From IMG/VR virus record IMGVR_UViG_2713897075_000003, positions 1-24,702 of that record: a DNA stretch of 24,702 bases; one strand, given 5' to 3'. Source of the stretch: a virus (Duplodnaviria; Heunggongvirae; Uroviricota; Caudoviricetes). Position numbers and translations under genes: made by a program. The notes beneath the pieces were generated by a model. It was not told the DNA's origin and ran no database searches. It saw nothing but the letters and a program-made list of their open reading frames with translations. Shown here one piece after another: positions 3,608 through 24,702 of this stretch (the stretch's first letter is position 1; every line of letters begins with the position of its first letter).

Positions 3608-3779
3608 CGCTTTGCTCTCCTGCGTCTCTTTGCTGCTCGTCGTGCCGCTGCAATACCGGTATGGCGGCGCTTTGGTGCTGGGGTGATGTTGTCAGCCATC
3701 AGGACCTGTGGCTTTGCAATTAGCGCAGAAGCCCAAAAACGAGTCGGGTACGGTAACAAGCCAATACATGCCACACGCA

Positions 3780-4226
3780 CTACTCACCTCCGTTGATGCG
3801 AATGCCTGTTGCAATGCTGTTTATGATGCTGTCAGTGCATGGGGTAGAAAGCTGGGCATCTCCAGCAATTTTCATGACATCAACATCTGCATATCGAATA
3901 CCGAGGTGTATCAGACCGGCTATACCTGACTTAAGCCGAGCATTTTCCATAAACAGATCCTTTGCCCGCTGTTTTTCTGCCTCAAGCTCAACGCGCAACT
4001 TCCCTACCGTTAGCGCAATATCCTCGTTCTCCTGGTCGCGGGATTTGATGTATTGCTGGTTTCTTTCCAGTTCATCCAGCAGTGCCAGCGCGATATCTGG
4101 CGAAAAGTGCTTCATAAAATCGTTAAGCGCATTAATTCGCTGATCGAAGGGCATTACAGGTGCTTCACCAGCAATTTTTGTTTTTTCAGCGATTTCACGA
4201 AGCTTTTGATAATCAATCTTGCTCAC
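3780..4226 (-). CDS. Ea22-like family protein (148 aa)
   Basis: GTG start overlapping the upstream stop (GTGA), RBS AAGGAGG; N-terminus MSKIDYQKLREIAEK and coiled-coil [16 protein letters not shown] are typical of the Ea22/Ead-like paralog family of lambdoid prophages. Confidence 0.55.
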   Translation of the reverse strand: MSKIDYQKLREIAEKTKIAGEAPVMPFDQRINALNDFMKHFSPDIALALLDELERNQQYIKSRDQENEDIALTVGKLRVELEAEKQRAKDLFMENARLKSGIAGLIHLGIRYADVDVMKIAGDAQLSTPCTDSIINSIATGIRINGGE

Positions 4227-5502: not shown

Positions 5503-6498
5503 TCAGTTATTGAAAGTGATCACTCCGCGCTCGATGGCGAAGTCAAAAAGCTGGTTAGCGGCTACGTAAAGGCGTATGCCATGTGCTTTTTCCCATGCCC
5601 GGACATCGTTTTCTGCGCTTCTGGCGCATTCATCGCAAAGAGGAACAGCCCAGCGGTCGTGTTCGTTTAACGAGCGAGCGCGGTACATGAATGGGTGGTT
5701 AACTTTGCCACCGCATCCGATGCACGGACGAGAAACTACAAACCGGAGATAAGCCGGGCTTTTACCGAGGACCGCTTTTGGTCGGCGCATATAAAGCAGG
5801 CCGGAATCCTCATCTACAGACAGGTTGACGATCTGCTCTGCGGTTATGTCCACCAGCTCGCGGGTACTGTGCTCCCAGGTGATATCTGATTCTTTCAGCG
5901 TACCGGTAGGGATTTCAGTTTTTGGCTGACAAAATGCAATGCGACCGGCTTCATCTGGCAGCTCATCTTTCAGATTCCGGCGAATGGCCCAAAAAGTGAG
6001 TTCAACCATGCTCAGATCGCGTTCTGGCGGTAGTTTTAACTCGCTCGCAGCCCAGTTCATAACCCAGTTGGCACGATTCAGGGATAACTGGTCGTCCAGC
6101 TTGCTGTACCCCTTCATCATGTATTCCGCATCATGCTTCCAGCACAGGCGAACGGCAGAGCCGTTATAGAAATGAGTGGTTAGCTGGTGGCTGCAATCGC
6201 GCTTATCGTGCGCCTGGCAATCGTGGATATTGGAACTTACCCAATGAACAAGCGAATCTTCACCGCCCAACGCGTTAAATACGCGCTCGCTTTGAAAAAA
6301 CGGTTTCAGAGACTGGTTGGCAACCAGCGAATAATTCAGATCCACTACGCCATCTGGCGTGTTTTCAGCCTGTTCACGCGGAAGTGGGGAGATAATGAAA
6401 CGGCGACCTACGCCAATGTAGTTACTGGTGGGCTTGTCTACCGGAAAGACAGCCACACCAGCTCCGTTTACGAAATGAGGTGTGATTATTGCACTCAT
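5503..6498 (-). CDS. DUF968-like phage protein (331 aa) with C-terminal Cys/His cluster
   Basis: ORF track. C-terminal CIGCGGKVNHPFMYRARSLNEHDRWAVPLCDEC resembles the Cys/His core of the Ref-like protein at 10710..11288. Confidence 0.55.
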   Translation of the reverse strand: MSAIITPHFVNGAGVAVFPVDKPTSNYIGVGRRFIISPLPREQAENTPDGVVDLNYSLVANQSLKPFFQSERVFNALGGEDSLVHWVSSNIHDCQAHDKRDCSHQLTTHFYNGSAVRLCWKHDAEYMMKGYSKLDDQLSLNRANWVMNWAASELKLPPERDLSMVELTFWAIRRNLKDELPDEAGRIAFCQPKTEIPTGTLKESDITWEHSTRELVDITAEQIVNLSVDEDSGLLYMRRPKAVLGKSPAYLRFVVSRPCIGCGGKVNHPFMYRARSLNEHDRWAVPLCDECARSAENDVRAWEKAHGIRLYVAANQLFDFAIERGVITFNN

Positions 6499-6538
6499 AA
6501 TGCATACCGACTCTGTTTTGTTCCGAGCGGTAAAATAA

Positions 6539-6571
6539 TATGTTAGAAAATTAAAATCAACAATCTAACAC
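6539..6571. promoter_or_regulatory. Operator-like inverted repeat TGTTAGA-N16-TCTAACA (site 1), probable internal promoter region
   Basis: aTGTTAGAaaattaaaatcaacaaTCTAACAc in the 104-bp gap between the phosphatase and DUF968-like genes. Same architecture as sites at 10631-10660 and 21481-21510. Coordinates +/-1 because of the 6481 discrepancy. Confidence 0.5.
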
Positions 6572-6602
6572 AGTTTTGAGCGCGTAAACGATGTAACCCG
6601 GC

Positions 6603-10616: not shown

Positions 10617-10693
10617 ATATTAATGTTTTATGTTAGAAAATCAATTTTGATTATCTAACGATATTGATCAATCATAAAAAAAATCGCTGATAA
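10617..10693. promoter_or_regulatory. Divergent promoter region with operator TGTTAGA-N16-TCTAACg (site 2, 10631-10660)
   Basis: Leftward promoter (minus-strand reading): -35 TTGATT (10639-10644), 16-nt spacer, -10 TAATAT (10617-10622), with the operator covering the -35 and spacer. Rightward promoter: -35 TTGATC (10664-10669), 18-nt spacer, -10 TGATAA (10688-10693), then RBS AAGAGG and ATG 10710. Confidence 0.6.
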
Positions 10694-10709: not shown

Positions 10710-11288
10710 ATGCAGAAACAGAGTTATTGGGAGAAACAGAGACAAAAAGCCATGCAAAAATTGGCTGACCCAGCCTGGCGAGAGGAACAAAGGGCAAAGC
10801 GCCTTCAACAAGCTTTACGCCAGCAGCAGCGAGCGAAAGAAAAAGCCTCATCGCCTGAATATCGGCAAAAGAAAATTGAAAAAGCAAAGCAATATGAACA
10901 GCGGAGAAAAGAGAAGGCTGTATCAGCTCCGTCCAAAAAAACACGCACGTCACGCGGCCTGAAAGGAAGATCACTCACAGCCGATGAACGCCGGATACAG
11001 ACCGCTATCGGTACTCTCCCCTGCATTGCCTGCCATATTCACGGGCAACATAGCCCAGTGGTATCCCTGCACCATATCTTCGGGAGAACGGCAGAGAACG
11101 CGCATAAATATGTTCTCCCTTTGTGTAAATGGCACCACCAGTACGCAGCGCCAGCCGAGGTCCGAGAACAATATCCCTGGCTGGTCCCTGTTCATGCTGA
11201 CGGAAAAATAGGCGGAAAAGCAGATTTCATGCGGCACAATGCCGATGAAATGGCGTTGTATCAGATGGCGATTGAATTGATAAATTAG
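10710..11288 (+). CDS. Ref-like (P1 recombination enhancement function-type) HNH-like nuclease (192 aa)
   Basis: About 95-aa highly basic, low-complexity N-terminus followed by a compact Cys/His core (LPCIACHIHGQHSPVVSLHHIF...LPLCKWHHQ). Architecture matches what I recall of P1 Ref / DUF968; no alignment was run. Confidence 0.55.
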   Translation: MQKQSYWEKQRQKAMQKLADPAWREEQRAKRLQQALRQQQRAKEKASSPEYRQKKIEKAKQYEQRRKEKAVSAPSKKTRTSRGLKGRSLTADERRIQTAIGTLPCIACHIHGQHSPVVSLHHIFGRTAENAHKYVLPLCKWHHQYAAPAEVREQYPWLVPVHADGKIGGKADFMRHNADEMALYQMAIELIN

Positions 11289-11619
11289 TTTTCTAACATT
11301 TTAAGTTGAATTGAAAAATGCTCCGATGTACATTCACTACCGATTGGCACACCGGTCAACTTTTTGAGACAAACTGTTTAGTTTTTCGTATGATTGCCGC
11401 CGCCATACCAATGGCGGTGCAATATAGGTGGCTGAAAAGCCCCCGTTGACTCACGGTGTTCCAGCCTTTATTGCGCCGCCACCAGACCGTGGAACAGTCG
11501 ATGGCGGCTCCGAAAGCAAGGAGTCACTACACTATGAACAGCTACTGTCTTTTCCCATCACTCGTTGTCCGCCACTCACGCGATAATCTGCATTCTTTAC
11601 TCGCGCTGGGGGTGTCAAA

Positions 11620-11833: not shown

Positions 11834-11914
11834 GGCACCTTAGAAAAACGGGTGCCGGGATTGGAACCCCGGATAATGTCAAAGGCGACACAGACGCCGA
11901 AAGCGTCTTTTTTT
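11834..11914 (+). ncRNA. Candidate structured small RNA / 3' UTR element ending in an intrinsic terminator; possible c4-like antisense regulator of the downstream icd-like/ant operon
   Basis: Hairpins GGCACC(11 nt)GGTGCC and CCGGG-ATTGGAAC-CCCGG followed by the terminator hairpin. The loop ATTGGAAC is complementary to GGTTCC (11997-12002) and GTTCCAAC (12017-12024) in the leader of the downstream operon. No expression data. Confidence 0.25.
11893..11914 (+). terminator. Rho-independent terminator (GACGC-cgaaa-GCGTC followed by T7)
   Basis: 5-bp GC-rich stem, 5-nt loop, seven consecutive T residues. Confidence 0.6.
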
Positions 11915-12099
11915 GTGTCATGCCATCGCACAGCCATACGTAGCGTTTAGCTCAGAGATCAATGGTAGTGCTGGCTGGGCTGCCGAAAGGCAGGCCGGTT
12001 CCCTTTGACGCCGGTAGTTCCAACCCAGTCAGTGCTACCGCCATTGAGATTGGAACCTCACGCGGTAGCTCCTTAACTTAGTCAAAGGAGGCTGCCAAT

Positions 12100-17463: not shown

Positions 17464-17823
17464 TCATACACCAACCAGGCTTTCAAGAGGAATGCCAAAC
17501 TGGGAATGTAAACGACGAATCATAGGTAACGTTAAATTTCGTGTCCCATTTAGCACTTCGTAAACACGATTTGACTTACCAATCGCCGGTTCCAGATCCT
17601 TCACGGTCAGCCCTTGCTGTTCCATACGGAATTTAATGGCTTCAATAGGTGATGGTGGCTCAATTGGGTAATGCTTTTTCTCGTACTCTTCAATGAGCAG
17701 GCACATTACTTCAAAGAAATCGCCTTCCGGTGTGTTCATTTCCGGTTCGTTATCGAACATCGGTTCGACCGCACGCAGTGCGGCCTCATAATCTTGTTCT
17801 GTACGGATAGGTTTAATGTTCAT
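17464..17823 (-). CDS. higA: HigA-like antitoxin (HTH, 119 aa)
   Basis: Immediately downstream of the HigB-like gene (3-nt gap); C-terminal HTH region GLTVKDLEPAIGKSNRVYEVLNGTRNLTLPMIRRLHSQFGIPLESL resembles HigA-type antitoxins. Confidence 0.65.
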   Translation of the reverse strand: MNIKPIRTEQDYEAALRAVEPMFDNEPEMNTPEGDFFEVMCLLIEEYEKKHYPIEPPSPIEAIKFRMEQQGLTVKDLEPAIGKSNRVYEVLNGTRNLTLPMIRRLHSQFGIPLESLVGV

Positions 17824-17826
17824 GAT

Positions 17827-18129
17827 TTACTCCAGTTCTATTGTATCCGCTTCAATGGCATCGTATTCCTTATGTGTTCCAATAAACTTAACGAACATCC
17901 ATCCTCGCTGATAAGCAATTGCGACAATTAACCTGTAATCATTTCCCTTAATATTGAACACCACGCGCCTGTTTTTAAGGATGCTGGCTGTCCGGTACTG
18001 TTCTTTGATCTCAGCCGGATTTTTCCAGTCAGCCTTTGTTGCTTCATCAACCCATGCCTTTAATGGCTGTTCTGCATCGGGATTCTTCGCCCAGAAATCC
18101 CTTAGTGTTTTTACCGAAATTATTTTCAT
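17827..18129 (-). CDS. higB: HigB-like toxin, RelE/ParE superfamily (100 aa)
   Basis: Internal ATG of track ORF 17827..18186 preceded by GAAGGA. MKIISVKTLRDFWAKNPDAEQPLKAW...YRTASILKNRRVVFNIKGNDYRLIVAIAYQRGWMFVKFIGTHKEYD matches the HigB pattern (...VFN.GGN..R......IR.V.TH.EYD); toxin precedes antitoxin as in higBA. Confidence 0.7.
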   Translation of the reverse strand: MKIISVKTLRDFWAKNPDAEQPLKAWVDEATKADWKNPAEIKEQYRTASILKNRRVVFNIKGNDYRLIVAIAYQRGWMFVKFIGTHKEYDAIEADTIELE

Positions 18130-18159
18130 CACAGATTCCTTCTCGCTGAAAGTATAGTA

Positions 18160-18205
18160 GTCCCAATATGGGACAATGTAAAGCACTTTAGTCCCATGCT
18201 GGGAT
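18160..18205. promoter_or_regulatory. Two palindromic operator-like sites in the higBA promoter region (GTCCCAATATGGGAC and TCCCATGCTGGGA)
   Basis: Two TAGTCCCA...TGGGA palindromes 31 bp apart, directly upstream of higB and divergent from the 18275 operon. Confidence 0.45.
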
Positions 18206-18274
18206 ATGAATTGAAATCACAATCTCCAGACAATGCACCCTCGATACCTGATAAATCGACCTTTGAGGATGCTT

Positions 18275-19066
18275 ATGGGCCGTTTTGACGAATGGTTTGC
18301 TGACGATGCAAACCTGGCAAGTAAGGAGTCAGAACATGACAGCACGCAGAGAGAAACGCCAGCGACGGTTGAAGCGGATGCAGGAGGCGCGCCGGAACAT
18401 GGCAATACCGGTTCGGATTCATTCAGCATTCTGGAAGAGCAACCCGCCGCCAAAGCTGATAGCCATGATAATTTTGCTGATAGCAACGGTGGCCTTACTC
18501 CGGATGCTGGCGAATCAGATATAGCCATACTTCCATCTTCCCTGGCTGGCAGAGAACCGACTCCACAGTTAAAAGCACGCTATAACGGGCATAAAGCCTT
18601 TAACGACCAAATCCGCGCAGACTGGATGCTGATTATTGAATCCAGCCCAGACGCGTTTCAGGCTCTCTTATATCGACCAGATGTTGGCACATATGGGGTA
18701 GTCAGCGACGAAACAGGAGAAGAGTCATTCACCGAACTGGATAACAACCAACGCGAACTGACTTACCAGGAACCTGAAATCGTTTATGTGCTGGATAACC
18801 CTGACGGGCGTGACTCTTTCCATGCGATTGACGCAGACGGTGAGCAGGATGGCTTAACCGATGATGTTCTGATTCTGCGTATTGCAGCAAATAACGTCCC
18901 CGTCGGCTCAATTCTTGAATGGAATGAAGAGATGGTAAACGGCGTAGCGCGCCGCTGGTGGTACGTGCACCGTATTTTTAGCTACGGCACACAGCATGTT
19001 GGTTCGCTTTACTACTGCATACCTGCCAGGAATTTTGATACGACTCAAAACGGAGTGATCGAATGA
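18275..19066 (+). CDS. Hypothetical acidic protein (263 aa) with low-complexity N-terminal region
   Basis: Internal ATG of track ORF 18233..19066 preceded by GAGGA at 6 nt; D/E-rich N-terminal 100 aa; stop overlaps the next start (ATGA). Confidence 0.5.
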   Translation: MGRFDEWFADDANLASKESEHDSTQRETPATVEADAGGAPEHGNTGSDSFSILEEQPAAKADSHDNFADSNGGLTPDAGESDIAILPSSLAGREPTPQLKARYNGHKAFNDQIRADWMLIIESSPDAFQALLYRPDVGTYGVVSDETGEESFTELDNNQRELTYQEPEIVYVLDNPDGRDSFHAIDADGEQDGLTDDVLILRIAANNVPVGSILEWNEEMVNGVARRWWYVHRIFSYGTQHVGSLYYCIPARNFDTTQNGVIE

Positions 19067-21473: not shown

Positions 21474-21517
21474 CCAATTGTGTTAGATAATTGAATAGAA
21501 TTTTCTAACACAATTGG
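21474..21517. promoter_or_regulatory. Perfect 14-bp inverted repeat CCAATTGTGTTAGA-N16-TCTAACACAATTGG (operator site 3 / RNA hairpin) upstream of the rdgC-like operon
   Basis: Arms 21474-21487 and 21504-21517, spacer 16 nt; contains the same TGTTAGA/TCTAACA core as sites at 6540 and 10631; ends 6 bp before the RBS of the rdgC-like gene. Confidence 0.55.
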
Positions 21518-21523
21518 TGAAAC

Positions 21524-22429
21524 ATGAGATCAGTCGCTTTCAAAAACATCTTCATCTATCGTCTTTCACGTGAAGTTAACTGGAGTGCCGCAGAAGTATC
21601 CGATGCTCTTAGCAAATTCGTGTTTACTCCTTGCGGTTCTCAGGACACAGCTAAAGTCGGTTGGACACCTGTTCTTGGTGACAACCTCACCCATGAATAC
21701 CAGGGTTTTCTGCTAATACAGCATAAGCGAGAAGAAAAAATTCTCCCCTCGCAGGTGCTCAAGGAAGAGTTGCAGAAAAAAGTCCTGAAACTCGAAGAAG
21801 AGCAAGCCCGCAAGCTGAAGAAAACGGAAAGAGACAGTCTTAAAGATGAAGTCCTGCATTCACTTTTGCCTCGCGCGTTCACGAGAAAATCACTCGCCAA
21901 AATCCTGATCGACCGCAGCAACCATCTGGTATTCGTTGAGGCAAGCAGCGCCAAAAAGGCAGAGGACCAGCTGGCTTTATTGCGAAAGTCGCTCGGCAGC
22001 CTGCCTGTCATTCCATTCACACCACGCGAACCGCTGGAAATTACAATGACCGAGTGGTTTAAAAGCGGCTTCCCTGCCGGATTTACAGCAGGTGAAGACG
22101 CCACATTAAAGGGTCTGCTCGATAATGGTGGTGCCGTTCGCTGCAACAAAGTTGATCTACAGTCCGACGAGATTATGTCTCACATTGAGGCGGGGAAAGT
22201 AGCTACGACCGTTGCAATTAACTGGATGGACCGTGCGTCGTTCAGAGTCAACGATGATATGAGTATCAAAGCCCTGACATTCTGTGATGATCTCTATGAC
22301 CAGAACGACGATATCGACCGGGAGGATGTAGCACAACGATTTGATGCTGATTTCGTGCTCTTTACGGGCGAATTATCTGCACTGTTTAACGCGCTGGTGG
22401 AGGCCATTGGCGGTGAAGCAGAACGATAA
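21524..22429 (+). CDS. rdgC: RdgC-like recombination-associated protein (301 aa)
   Basis: [12 protein letters not shown]...[16 protein letters not shown]...[16 protein letters not shown]...[29 protein letters not shown]...[23 protein letters not shown]...[22 protein letters not shown] is collinear with chromosomal E. coli RdgC as I recall it. Confidence 0.85.
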
Positions 22430-23093
22430 TAACCGACCGCTTGTTGTGAGTCTTTGTGATTTTACGGGGGCAATGGTTGCCCCCTGGCTGGAATACGGTG
22501 TCGATGCCGCTATCGTCGATCCACAGCACTTATCGACCAGTGACGAGCGGATGCAATCAGGTGCCGTTCTGACGCGTATTAGTGCGATCATCGATAGCGA
22601 TGAAGTATACGCTTTTCTCCGTAAGAATTTGCAGCGCATCGTGTTTCTGGCCGGGTTCCCACCGTGTACTGACCTGGCTGTTTCCGGCGCGCGCTGGTTT
22701 TCGGACAAGGCTAATAAAGATCCGGTTTTCCAGTTCAAAGCAATGCAGGTTGTCTGGCAGTGTTATGACATTGCAAAGATGATCGGTTGTCCGTACATGA
22801 TTGAAAATCCGGTCAGCAAAATATCGACATTCTGGCGTAAGCCAGATCACAGCTTTCACCCTTACTTCTTCACTGCATATTGTCAGGAAGATAACTACAC
22901 CAAAAAAACATGCCTCTGGAGCGGCCAGGGCTTTGTCATGCCTGATGCCCTAATGGACGAATCATTAGGCAAGCCAGATAACAGAATCCATGCCGCGCCA
23001 CCAGGGCCTGACAGGGCTAATTTCCGAAGTGCTACTCCACATGGATTCGCAAAGGCAGTTTTCGAAGCGAATAAGGGGGTGCTCTATGAGTAA
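22413..23093 (+). CDS. Truncated C5-cytosine methyltransferase-like catalytic core (about 226 aa; motifs I, IV, VI-like; no target-recognition domain)
   Basis: Probable GTG start 22413 (GGAGG 9 nt upstream), overlapping the rdgC stop. SLCDFTGAM (motif I-like), [15 protein letters not shown] (motif IV-like PC with Cys), MIENPVSKI (ENV-like) occur in the order and spacing expected for the large domain of C5-MTases. Too short to contain a TRD or motifs IX/X. Confidence 0.5.
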
Positions 23094-23991
23094 ATCTATA
23101 GCAAGCATAGCCATAGAAAAACAGGATACGATGGCTGAAATTAGCTATATGCGCACCATTCGGACTCCGGATGAATATGAGCGTCCGATATTCAAATGGG
23201 TAGGTGGTAAATTCTCAGAATTGCCTACAGTGCTTGAGCATCTACCACACGGTAAGCGGTTAATAGAACCATTCGTTGGTGGCGGTTCCGTATTTACGAA
23301 TGCAGGATTTCGCCACAACCTGCTTAATGATATTAACGGTGACCTGATTAACTTCTATCAGACATTGCAGCGAGAAGGACATTCGCTCGTCACGCTGTCA
23401 TATAGTTTTTTCAAAAATTACAACAACGCTGACGCTTACCTCGAAGTGCGTGAGGCATTTAACAGAGGAAAATATGACCAGCTACATCATGCTGCCGCAT
23501 TTTTGTACCTTAATCGTCACTGTTTTAATGGCGTAACGCGGTACAACCAAAATGGCGAGTTCAACGTGGGGTATGGCAAATACAAAGCGCCCTACTTCCC
23601 ACATGCAGAGATGGAGGCATTTTTGGCTGATGACGTACTCAAAAACACTTCCTTTGTATCAGGAGACTTTGCTAGCGTCATCGAGGCGGCTGGTGAAGAC
23701 GATGTGATTTTTTGTGATCCGCCGTATGAACCGCTTCCGGATACAGAGGGATTTACCAGCTATTCAGGAAATAGCTTCCGTTTCGATGAACAAAAACGGC
23801 TTGTATCACTGTTGGTGGATGCCCACCAGCGCGGCGCTAAGGTAGTGATAACAAATAGTGGTGCTCCAAACATCCGTGAGCTATATGAAGGAAACGGGTT
23901 TAAAGTACATCATATGGCAGCCAGACGGTCGGTTTCCTGCAAGGCGTCAACACGTGTAGTTGCTAACGATATAATTGCAATAATGAAGTAA
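23086..23991 (+). CDS. dam: Dam-family DNA N6-adenine methyltransferase (301 aa)
   Basis: ATG 23086 with RBS AAGGGGG, overlapping the upstream stop by 8 nt. PIFKWVGGK...IEPFVGGGSVF...FLYLNRHCFNGVTRYNQNGEFNV...DPPYEP match Dam / T4 Dam motifs including DPPY. Confidence 0.85.
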   Translation: MSKSIASIAIEKQDTMAEISYMRTIRTPDEYERPIFKWVGGKFSELPTVLEHLPHGKRLIEPFVGGGSVFTNAGFRHNLLNDINGDLINFYQTLQREGHSLVTLSYSFFKNYNNADAYLEVREAFNRGKYDQLHHAAAFLYLNRHCFNGVTRYNQNGEFNVGYGKYKAPYFPHAEMEAFLADDVLKNTSFVSGDFASVIEAAGEDDVIFCDPPYEPLPDTEGFTSYSGNSFRFDEQKRLVSLLVDAHQRGAKVVITNSGAPNIRELYEGNGFKVHHMAARRSVSCKASTRVVANDIIAIMK

Positions 23992-23994
23992 AAA

Positions 23995-24020
23995 ACGCCG
24001 CAGTAGCGGCGTTTACTTTT
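23995..24020. terminator. Bidirectional intrinsic terminator between dam (+) and glnS (-)
   Basis: ACGCCGC-agta-GCGGCGT 7-bp stem flanked by AAAAA upstream and TTTACTTTTT downstream. Confidence 0.6.
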
Positions 24021-24039: not shown

Positions 24040-24702
24040 TTAACCTAACTTCGCCCAGGTATCACGCAGCCCAACGGTGCGGTTAAATACCGGTTTTTCC
24101 GCCGTAGAATGGCGGCTGTCGAGGCAGAAATAACCTTCACGCTCAAACTGGAATGCTTTACCCGCTACCGCTTCTTTCAGCGACGGTTCAGCAAAGCCTT
24201 GTTTGATCACCAGCGATTCCGGGTTAATCACCGACAGGAAATCATCCGCAGCACCTGGGTTCGGCACGTTGAACAGACGATCGTACAGGCGGATTTCAAC
24301 CGGCAGCGCATGTGCCGCGCTCACCCAGTGAATAACGCCTTTCACTTTACGACCATCTGCCGGATCTTTGCTTAAGGTGTCGGCGTCATAAGTACAGAAG
24401 ATGGTGGTGATATTACCTTCGGCATCTTTCTCCACGCGTTCAGCCTTAATGACGTAAGCATTACGCAGACGCACTTCTTTACCCAGCACCAGACGTTTGT
24501 ACTGCTTGTTAGCTTCTTCTCGGAAATCGGCGCGGTCGATCCAAATCTCACCGCTAAACGGCACCTGACGGCTACCCATTTCCGGTTTGTTTGGATGGTT
24601 CGGCATGGTGACCATTTCGCCTTCGCCCTGGTAGTTTTCGATAACCAGTTTCACCGGATCGATAACCGCCATTGCGCGCGGGGCATTTTCGTTGAGATCT
24701 TC
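24040..24702 (-). CDS. glnS: Glutaminyl-tRNA synthetase, C-terminal part (5' end beyond window)
   Basis: Translation ...[101 protein letters not shown] is near-identical to the anticodon-binding domain of enterobacterial GlnS; the ORF runs to the window edge. Confidence 0.9.

Follow-up and report, generated by a model that had tools for sequence, protein, structure and literature searches.

A probable D6-lineage counterpart of the P1 hrdC-dmt operon with a separate short Dcm-type methylase gene

What brings an rdgC gene, a gene for a short C5-cytosine methylase-like protein and a dam gene together behind one long inverted repeat? We address this question for positions 21474-23991 of a 24,702-nt stretch of tailed-phage DNA (IMG/VR virus record IMGVR_UViG_2713897075_000003; hereafter the window). 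The initial annotation of this DNA took the gene combination to be undescribed. In fact the arrangement is known: P1 carries an annotated Odmt-Pdmt-uhr-hrdC-dmt region, and the record of phage D6 already labels all three genes, so that the locus is a split-gene variant of the P1 hrdC-dmt operon. We consider it very probable that the region is the D6-lineage counterpart of this C1-repressed early operon, carried on a plasmid prophage of about 90 kb.

The relationship to D6 and its plasmid relatives is close. Over its 2.65 kb, the region matches E. coli plasmids of ~90 kb with 100% identity, and all 101 of its E. coli matches lie on plasmids, with none of the 101 on a chromosome. PLSDB holds 120 matching plasmids from Escherichia, Salmonella and Shigella, 118 of them classed as non-mobilizable phage-plasmids. 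Phage D6, a P1-like plasmid prophage, carries this locus at 96% nucleotide identity, the three genes again lying between the same neighbours, a gene 5-like baseplate gene and glnS; the two differ allelically only, for example in the outer flank of the repeat (CCATTTG in D6, CCAATTG in the window). Judged by these matches, the window is a D6-like phage-plasmid. The D6 record (GenBank MF356679; Gilcrease & Casjens 2018) describes orf65 as ‘RdgC family, similar to P1 hrdC’, orf64 as a ‘putative DNA-cytosine methylase’ and orf63 as ‘similar to the C-terminal half of P1 dmt’.

The first and third proteins tie the locus to P1 directly. The RdgC protein matches Pfam PF04381 (E=5e-103; 345 bits against a cut-off of 25) over profile positions 3-298 of 298, as well as NCBIfam NF001462 (381 bits against a cut-off of 330), and shares 51% identity with P1 HrdC from end to end, over 300 amino acids (aa). 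It thus resembles E. coli RdgC in matching the family model from end to end, and differs from it in being phage-encoded. RdgC-family proteins bind double-stranded DNA and inhibit RecA. The Dam protein matches PF02086 (E=5.5e-57) and TIGR00571 (251 bits against a cut-off of 115), and its translation contains FVGGGS (an FxGxG motif) and CDPPYE (a DPPY motif). P1 Dmt (754 aa) combines a C5 methylase (PF00145) in its N-terminal half with Dam (PF02086) in its C-terminal half; the window Dam is 69% identical to Dmt residues 478-753 over 278 aa. From this orthology we infer that the window protein is a GATC methylase.

The organization of the two loci can be compared step by step. In both, an RdgC-family gene stands directly before the methylase coding sequence and overlaps it (by 4 nt in P1, where hrdC meets dmt, and by 17 nt in the window), the HrdC and Dam proteins are orthologous, and a C1-type operator, in the window a candidate one, lies upstream of what would be an early non-structural operon of a plasmid prophage. 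The differences are equally clear. P1 has its C5 methylase and Dam in one protein, whereas the window has a separate and unrelated short methylase of 226 aa. P1 has uhr, whereas the window has no open reading frame (ORF) between the repeat and rdgC. The annotated P1 operator Odmt (a C1 operator, formerly Op68) is a single site at the -35 box, whereas that in the window would be two-part and overlap the -10 box. Finally, the operon follows upfC in P1 and tail/baseplate genes in the window.

How stable is this arrangement within the D6 lineage? We examined 26 D6-like IMG/VR loci, whose RdgC proteins are 67-100% identical to that of the window. All 26 show the order baseplate gene, repeat, rdgC, methylase(s). 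In 21 of them the methylases are the short protein and a separate Dam; in the other five (L016, L019, L024, L029 and L031), a P1-type C5 domain is followed directly by Dam, and the ORF listing of three of these five loci gives the fused P1-type Dmt as a single ORF of 712-872 aa. The fused Dmt of L019 (5884-8178) and that of L031 have a C5 half ~95% identical to P1 Dmt joined to a Dam half of D6 type (93%). This composition indicates that the two are P1 x D6 chimeras, apparently formed by recombination inside the gene between P1-type and D6-type phage-plasmids. As read from these sequences, the two types of C5 methylase replace each other in one fixed place, which supports the view that they are functionally equivalent.

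The short methylase itself belongs to a very large family of at least 7,900 proteins, with 1,579 phage records among its matches, and fits PHROG 757, ‘DNA methyltransferase’, at E=1e-77. Across an alignment of 38 homologues, the segments LCDxTG, DPQH, GFPPC(85)TDLAVSG, E(131)NPV, YTK(164)KT and RSATPxGF are invariant; this includes C85, E131 and K164, while K165 is kept in most sequences but not all. An AlphaFold model of the protein (predicted local distance difference test score 86.3, predicted template-modelling score 0.86) is nearest to C5-cytosine DNA methylases, with DNMT3A/B found by Foldseek at E of about 7e-4. The protein therefore has the C5-methylase fold together with the catalytic PC-Cys and the ENV-type Glu. 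PDB sequence searches, whether with the single sequence or with a profile, returned noise only.

A link to experiment comes from the T1-like phage K42, which has a 711-bp dcm gene with catalytic residues C82, E128, K175 and K176 (bioRxiv 10.1101/2023.08.16.553469). K42 Dcm makes 5-methylcytosine (5mC) in the multicopy single-stranded DNA of retron Ec86 at a CCWGG site, triggering the retron, and formation of 5mC in vivo depends on those catalytic residues (bioRxiv 10.1101/2023.08.16.553469). Phage tonn gp40, read from Met22, is a protein of 236 aa with Cys, Glu and Lys-Lys at exactly the K42 Dcm positions; its identity to the window protein is 36.9%, across 94% of the length. C85, E131 and K164/K165 of the window protein then correspond to C82, E128 and K175/K176 of K42 Dcm. 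The short Dcm-type methylases of T1-like and Jersey-like phages (PHROG 757) are like the window protein in size (~215-240 aa), fold and catalytic residues, and unlike it in sequence (~37% identity) and in setting, since theirs are stand-alone genes in replication or nin regions. The motifs and the correspondence with tonn gp40 and K42 Dcm place the short methylase in an experimentally supported family. By its sequence the window protein is a member of this short Dcm-type family, with its own activity predicted; the specificity for CCWGG that was reported for K42 Dcm should not be assumed for it. Kinship with the 16S rRNA methylase M.EcoPA8orf6770P of Stx phages was considered and ruled out, as the DPPW motif of that enzyme marks a different class.

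We next turn to the control of the operon. The perfect 14-bp inverted repeat that the initial annotation placed upstream of rdgC is present (21474-21487 / 21504-21517), and can be lengthened to arms of 19 nt that contain one mismatch and stand 6 nt apart (Table 1). Its suggested role as an operator is supported by recurrence of the core motif at other promoters. TGTTAGAWAA occurs five times in the window against 0.09 expected, and TGTTAGAAAA occurs 10 times in D6 against 0.4 expected, always between genes: ahead of c1, lpa, icd/ant and pdcB, and flanking ref. These flanking D6 sites match the annotated C1 operators Oref and Omat of P1. In the window, too, operator-like cores at 10631-10640 (+) and 11289-11298 (-) flank a ref homologue (10710-11288), mirroring P1 Oref/Omat. 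Compared with the P1 operators (ATTGCTCTAATAAATTT and variants), the half-site ATTGTGTTAGAAAATT agrees at ~11 of 17 positions. A search of D6 with the P1 operator consensus itself gave no good matches, which suggests that D6 uses its own operator variant.

A second two-part site lies at 6537-6574, upstream of a pdcB-like gene (5503-6498, - strand). Here, too, two inverted TGTTAGA cores stand 6 nt apart, as at the rdgC site, but the site folds poorly (-4.4 versus -21.1 kcal/mol). Since this site has the geometry without a good hairpin, the feature common to both is the geometry and not the hairpin. We followed conservation at the rdgC site by aligning 15 diverse loci. All 15 show GATAAT in the left arm and TTTTCTAACA in the right arm without a change, and the mismatched pair that creates GATAAT is unpaired in every one. 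L029 has lost the left arm and retains GATAAT and the right half-site. The baseplate gene upstream ends with a TAG stop codon that is part of the -35-like hexamer TAGAAA, and ATAG.AAA is conserved in the same 15 loci. Promoter activity at TAGAAA/GATAAT is inferred from these elements. Together with the half-sites, they fit a weak sigma-70 promoter under a two-part C1 operator, and the repeat is probably such a candidate operator site for the C1 repressor. At the repeat, a P1-type late promoter (AAGTGACTT box at -22) is absent, and Rfam gives no match.

Several observations count against the picture of a C1-repressed P1-type operon drawn so far. At the protein level, the short methylase has no Pfam match at E<=0.1 and no NCBIfam match. 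It shows no similarity to the N-terminal half of P1 Dmt by BLAST or hhalign, and direct homology to the P1 C5 domain was therefore dropped. It also has no recognisable target-recognition domain: the gap from KKT to RSATP, ~50 residues, is too short for a canonical one. In P1, hrdC and dmt were non-essential in a CRISPR interference screen (PMC10695390). At the DNA level, the covarying outer flank of the repeat is unlike the flanks of the other operator copies, and this covariation points to something beyond repressor binding. Moreover, the tail operon upstream ends without a terminator ahead of the repeat, which allows for late read-through transcription.

These last points bear on an alternative in which the palindrome works, chiefly or in addition, at the RNA level: it would form a hairpin in transcripts reading through from the late tail operon upstream, where it could stabilise a 3' end, serve as a processing site or partially mask the rdgC ribosome-binding site. 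In its favour, the RNA folds at -26.5 kcal/mol against an average of -12.1 for shuffled sequences (z = -5.3), covariation in sibling loci affects the outer 5-6 bp of the arms (six pairs changed on both sides with complementarity kept; covariation score of the repeat 0.24 versus 0.09), the stem extends 2 nt into the GGTGA ribosome-binding site, and the terminator scan places no terminator between the baseplate gene and the repeat. On the other hand, the conserved core recurs at other promoters without a hairpin, one position is mismatched in all 15 loci because the mismatch completes GATAAT, L029 keeps GATAAT and the right half-site without the left arm, no U-tract follows the stem, and template-switch repair can keep palindromes symmetric without selection. 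We judge the hairpin unlikely as the explanation of the palindrome, though a serious contender; the palindrome may have a further role in late read-through RNA, or may be maintained passively. The reading as a two-part C1 operator is the one we retain. A further alternative concerns the short methylase, which might not be a DNA 5mC methylase at all but an inactive protein, an enzyme for RNA or nucleotides, or one that transfers a group other than methyl, e.g. carboxymethyl. We regard this as quite improbable, given that the catalytic Cys (PPC), Glu (ENP) and KK pair are kept across the sampled homologues, that a family member makes 5mC in vivo dependent on those residues (bioRxiv 10.1101/2023.08.16.553469), and that a canonical C5 methylase occupies the same slot in sibling loci.

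The three proteins could also form one dedicated system, with RdgC loading or guiding the methylases, or an anti-defence cassette as the initial annotation proposed. The overlap of rdgC with the methylase gene, kept in P1 (4 nt) and in D6-type elements (17 nt) despite only 51% HrdC identity and a swap of the C5 methylase, would speak for this; shared descent of P1 and D6, however, suffices for the synteny. The neighbourhood survey suggested for the trio went against joint action as well. RdgC homologues occur in 295 phage records, and in all four phages examined (Kpn BU9, Sergei, Vibrio K249 and VHML) rdgC has no adjacent methylase. Conversely, Jersey, tonn, EspM4VN and a Vibrio phage each have the short methylase as a solitary gene. 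Its closest homologues (~60% identity) stand alone too, one in a lambdoid nin region, between ninB and ninE/F/G of a Cronobacter prophage, and others in different early or lysis regions of Pseudomonas and Photorhabdus prophages. As rdgC and the short methylase are separate elsewhere, the trio appears to be a lineage feature of P1/D6-type phage-plasmids and not a widely recurring system. No PADLOC defence-system model matches RdgC or the short methylase, and an anti-defence role finds no support beyond what is known for orphan phage methylases. A single dedicated system is accordingly very unlikely in our estimate. As for genomic context, a glnS fragment directly downstream of dam on the opposite strand would suit the end of a prophage or island integrated beside chromosomal glnS, the framing adopted at the outset by the initial annotation. 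We give it virtually no chance and rule it out: every match is plasmid-borne, 118 of the 120 PLSDB plasmids are non-mobilizable phage-plasmids, and GlnRS is encoded by D6 itself (orf62). The D6 record assigns the convergent gene downstream to the phage, as its own glutaminyl-tRNA synthetase, which makes the ‘island-terminal’ reading wrong.

We therefore return to the operon as the D6-lineage counterpart of P1 hrdC-dmt and consider how it may work. In the lysogen, a C1-type repressor would bind the two inverted TGTTAGA(A/T)AA half-sites, 6 nt apart, a binding suggested by the recurrence of the motif. The bound repressor would cover the weak sigma-70 promoter, whose -10 element lies in the left half-site, and keep the operon off. 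Upon induction or infection, transcription would begin near 21498, inside the repeat, leaving the left arm out of the operon's own mRNA, and three translationally coupled proteins would then be made: an RdgC homologue that, from what is known of its family, may restrain RecA; a short Dcm-type C5-cytosine methylase, which has a ~37%-identical relative that makes 5mC; and a Dam protein, an orthologue of the corresponding half of P1 Dmt, that would methylate GATC. Relative to P1, the fused C5 domain would have been replaced by the stand-alone short methylase, with uhr absent. The two orphan methylases would mark replicating phage DNA, serving pac cutting that depends on GATC methylation, as in P1, and protecting progeny DNA from restriction in the next host.

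Data on P1 and the D6 sequence bear on this scheme. In P1, pac has to be Dam-methylated, and dmt becomes essential, for pac cutting, only when the host is Dam- (PMC12707154). In the P1vir transcriptome, hrdC and dmt behave as early replication/processing genes. The densest GATC cluster of D6, five sites in 170 bp at 3715-3885 (L004), lies within pacA and is a candidate methylation-regulated pac site, as in P1. Neither GATC (325 sites in D6 against 353 expected) nor CCWGG (224 against 147) is avoided. We conclude that the most likely role of the operon is self-methylation of replicating phage DNA for packaging control and restriction protection, with a putative RdgC-type RecA modulator co-expressed. 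Going further, HrdC may work with the methylases, for example by keeping RecA off unmethylated new DNA or as a DNA-bound partner, and the covarying palindrome might add an RNA-level switch between late read-through and repressor-controlled expression; we consider both a long shot.

The layout of the operon largely follows the initial annotation. The three genes lie on one strand as an operon, as the ORF list and the sequence confirm, and their identification as RdgC, a C5-methylase-like protein and Dam holds. The starts and stops were described as overlapping; all three genes do overlap (rdgC with the short methylase gene by 17 nt, the latter with dam by 8 nt, identically in sibling loci), but the GTG does not literally overlap the rdgC stop. 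A terminator-like hairpin was likewise rightly seen after dam; it is not island-terminal and sits between dam and the element's own convergent glnS. The neighbours of the operon are the baseplate gene and glnS, with no cognate endonuclease beside the methylases, and the best PADLOC match of Dam is the ‘orphan methyltransferase’ model. In the RefSeq entry NZ_CP047663 (locus L002), the short methylase is started at ATG 22473, which drops the conserved LCDxTG motif, and the Dam gene is flagged as a pseudogene ‘missing N-terminus’, apparently from comparison with fused Dmt proteins. Both the truncation and the flag look like annotation artefacts.

Table 1. Features of the operon and its control region in the window
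Feature	Position	Strand	Description
-35-like hexamer TAGAAA	21462-21467	+	promoter scan, 9/12 matches; 18 nt upstream of GATAAT
Left arm, candidate operator half-site 1	21474-21492	+	core TGTTAGATAA; core motif recurs at other promoters
-10-like hexamer GATAAT	21486-21491	+	in left arm; carries the single conserved mismatch of the palindrome
Right arm, candidate operator half-site 2	21499-21517	-	core TGTTAGAAAA on the - strand
rdgC ribosome-binding site GGTGA	21516-21520	+	from sequence; overlaps last 2 nt of right arm
rdgC/hrdC gene	21524-22429	+	RdgC-family protein, 301 aa
Short methylase ribosome-binding site GGAGG	22399-22403	+	from sequence; 9 nt upstream of GTG 22413
Short Dcm-type C5-cytosine methylase-like gene (D6 orf64)	22413-23093	+	226 aa, GTG start
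dam ribosome-binding site AAGGGGG	23073-23079	+	from sequence; 6 nt upstream of ATG 23086
dam gene	23086-23991	+	D12-class N6-adenine DNA methylase, 301 aa, ATG start
Bidirectional terminator-like hairpin	23993-24014	both	terminator scan: 9 bp, 6 G-C, loop 4, T-runs on either strand

Other features of the window belong to the wider phage-plasmid. The C-terminal part of glutaminyl-tRNA synthetase occupies 24040-24702 (- strand), the gene running off the window end; it is the phage-plasmid's own gene (D6 orf62, 553 aa) and not a chromosomal one, and an aminoacyl-tRNA synthetase is unusual for a P1-like phage-plasmid. Between tail gene blocks, at 17464-18528 (- strand), lie a RelE-type toxin gene and two HigA-type antitoxin genes (D6 orf70-72). 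Rfam matches to isrK at 11835-11913 (+; 62.7 bits) and to C4 antisense RNA at 11958-12045 (+; 77.1 bits) mark a P1-type immI (c4-icd-ant) immunity region.

These results place an apparently novel ‘RdgC plus two methylases’ cassette in the P1 hrdC-dmt family and in an already annotated D6 genome. They also provide a candidate D6-type C1 operator motif, TGTTAGAAAA, that can be read directly from sequence. The D6-type slot, filled either by a fused P1-type Dmt or by a split short Dcm and Dam, is a clear case of exchange between unrelated C5 methylases. Finally, the short methylase family is very large and has no Pfam model, and one of its members triggers retron Ec86; D6-like plasmids might thus be sensed by Ec86-type retrons upon derepression of this operon.

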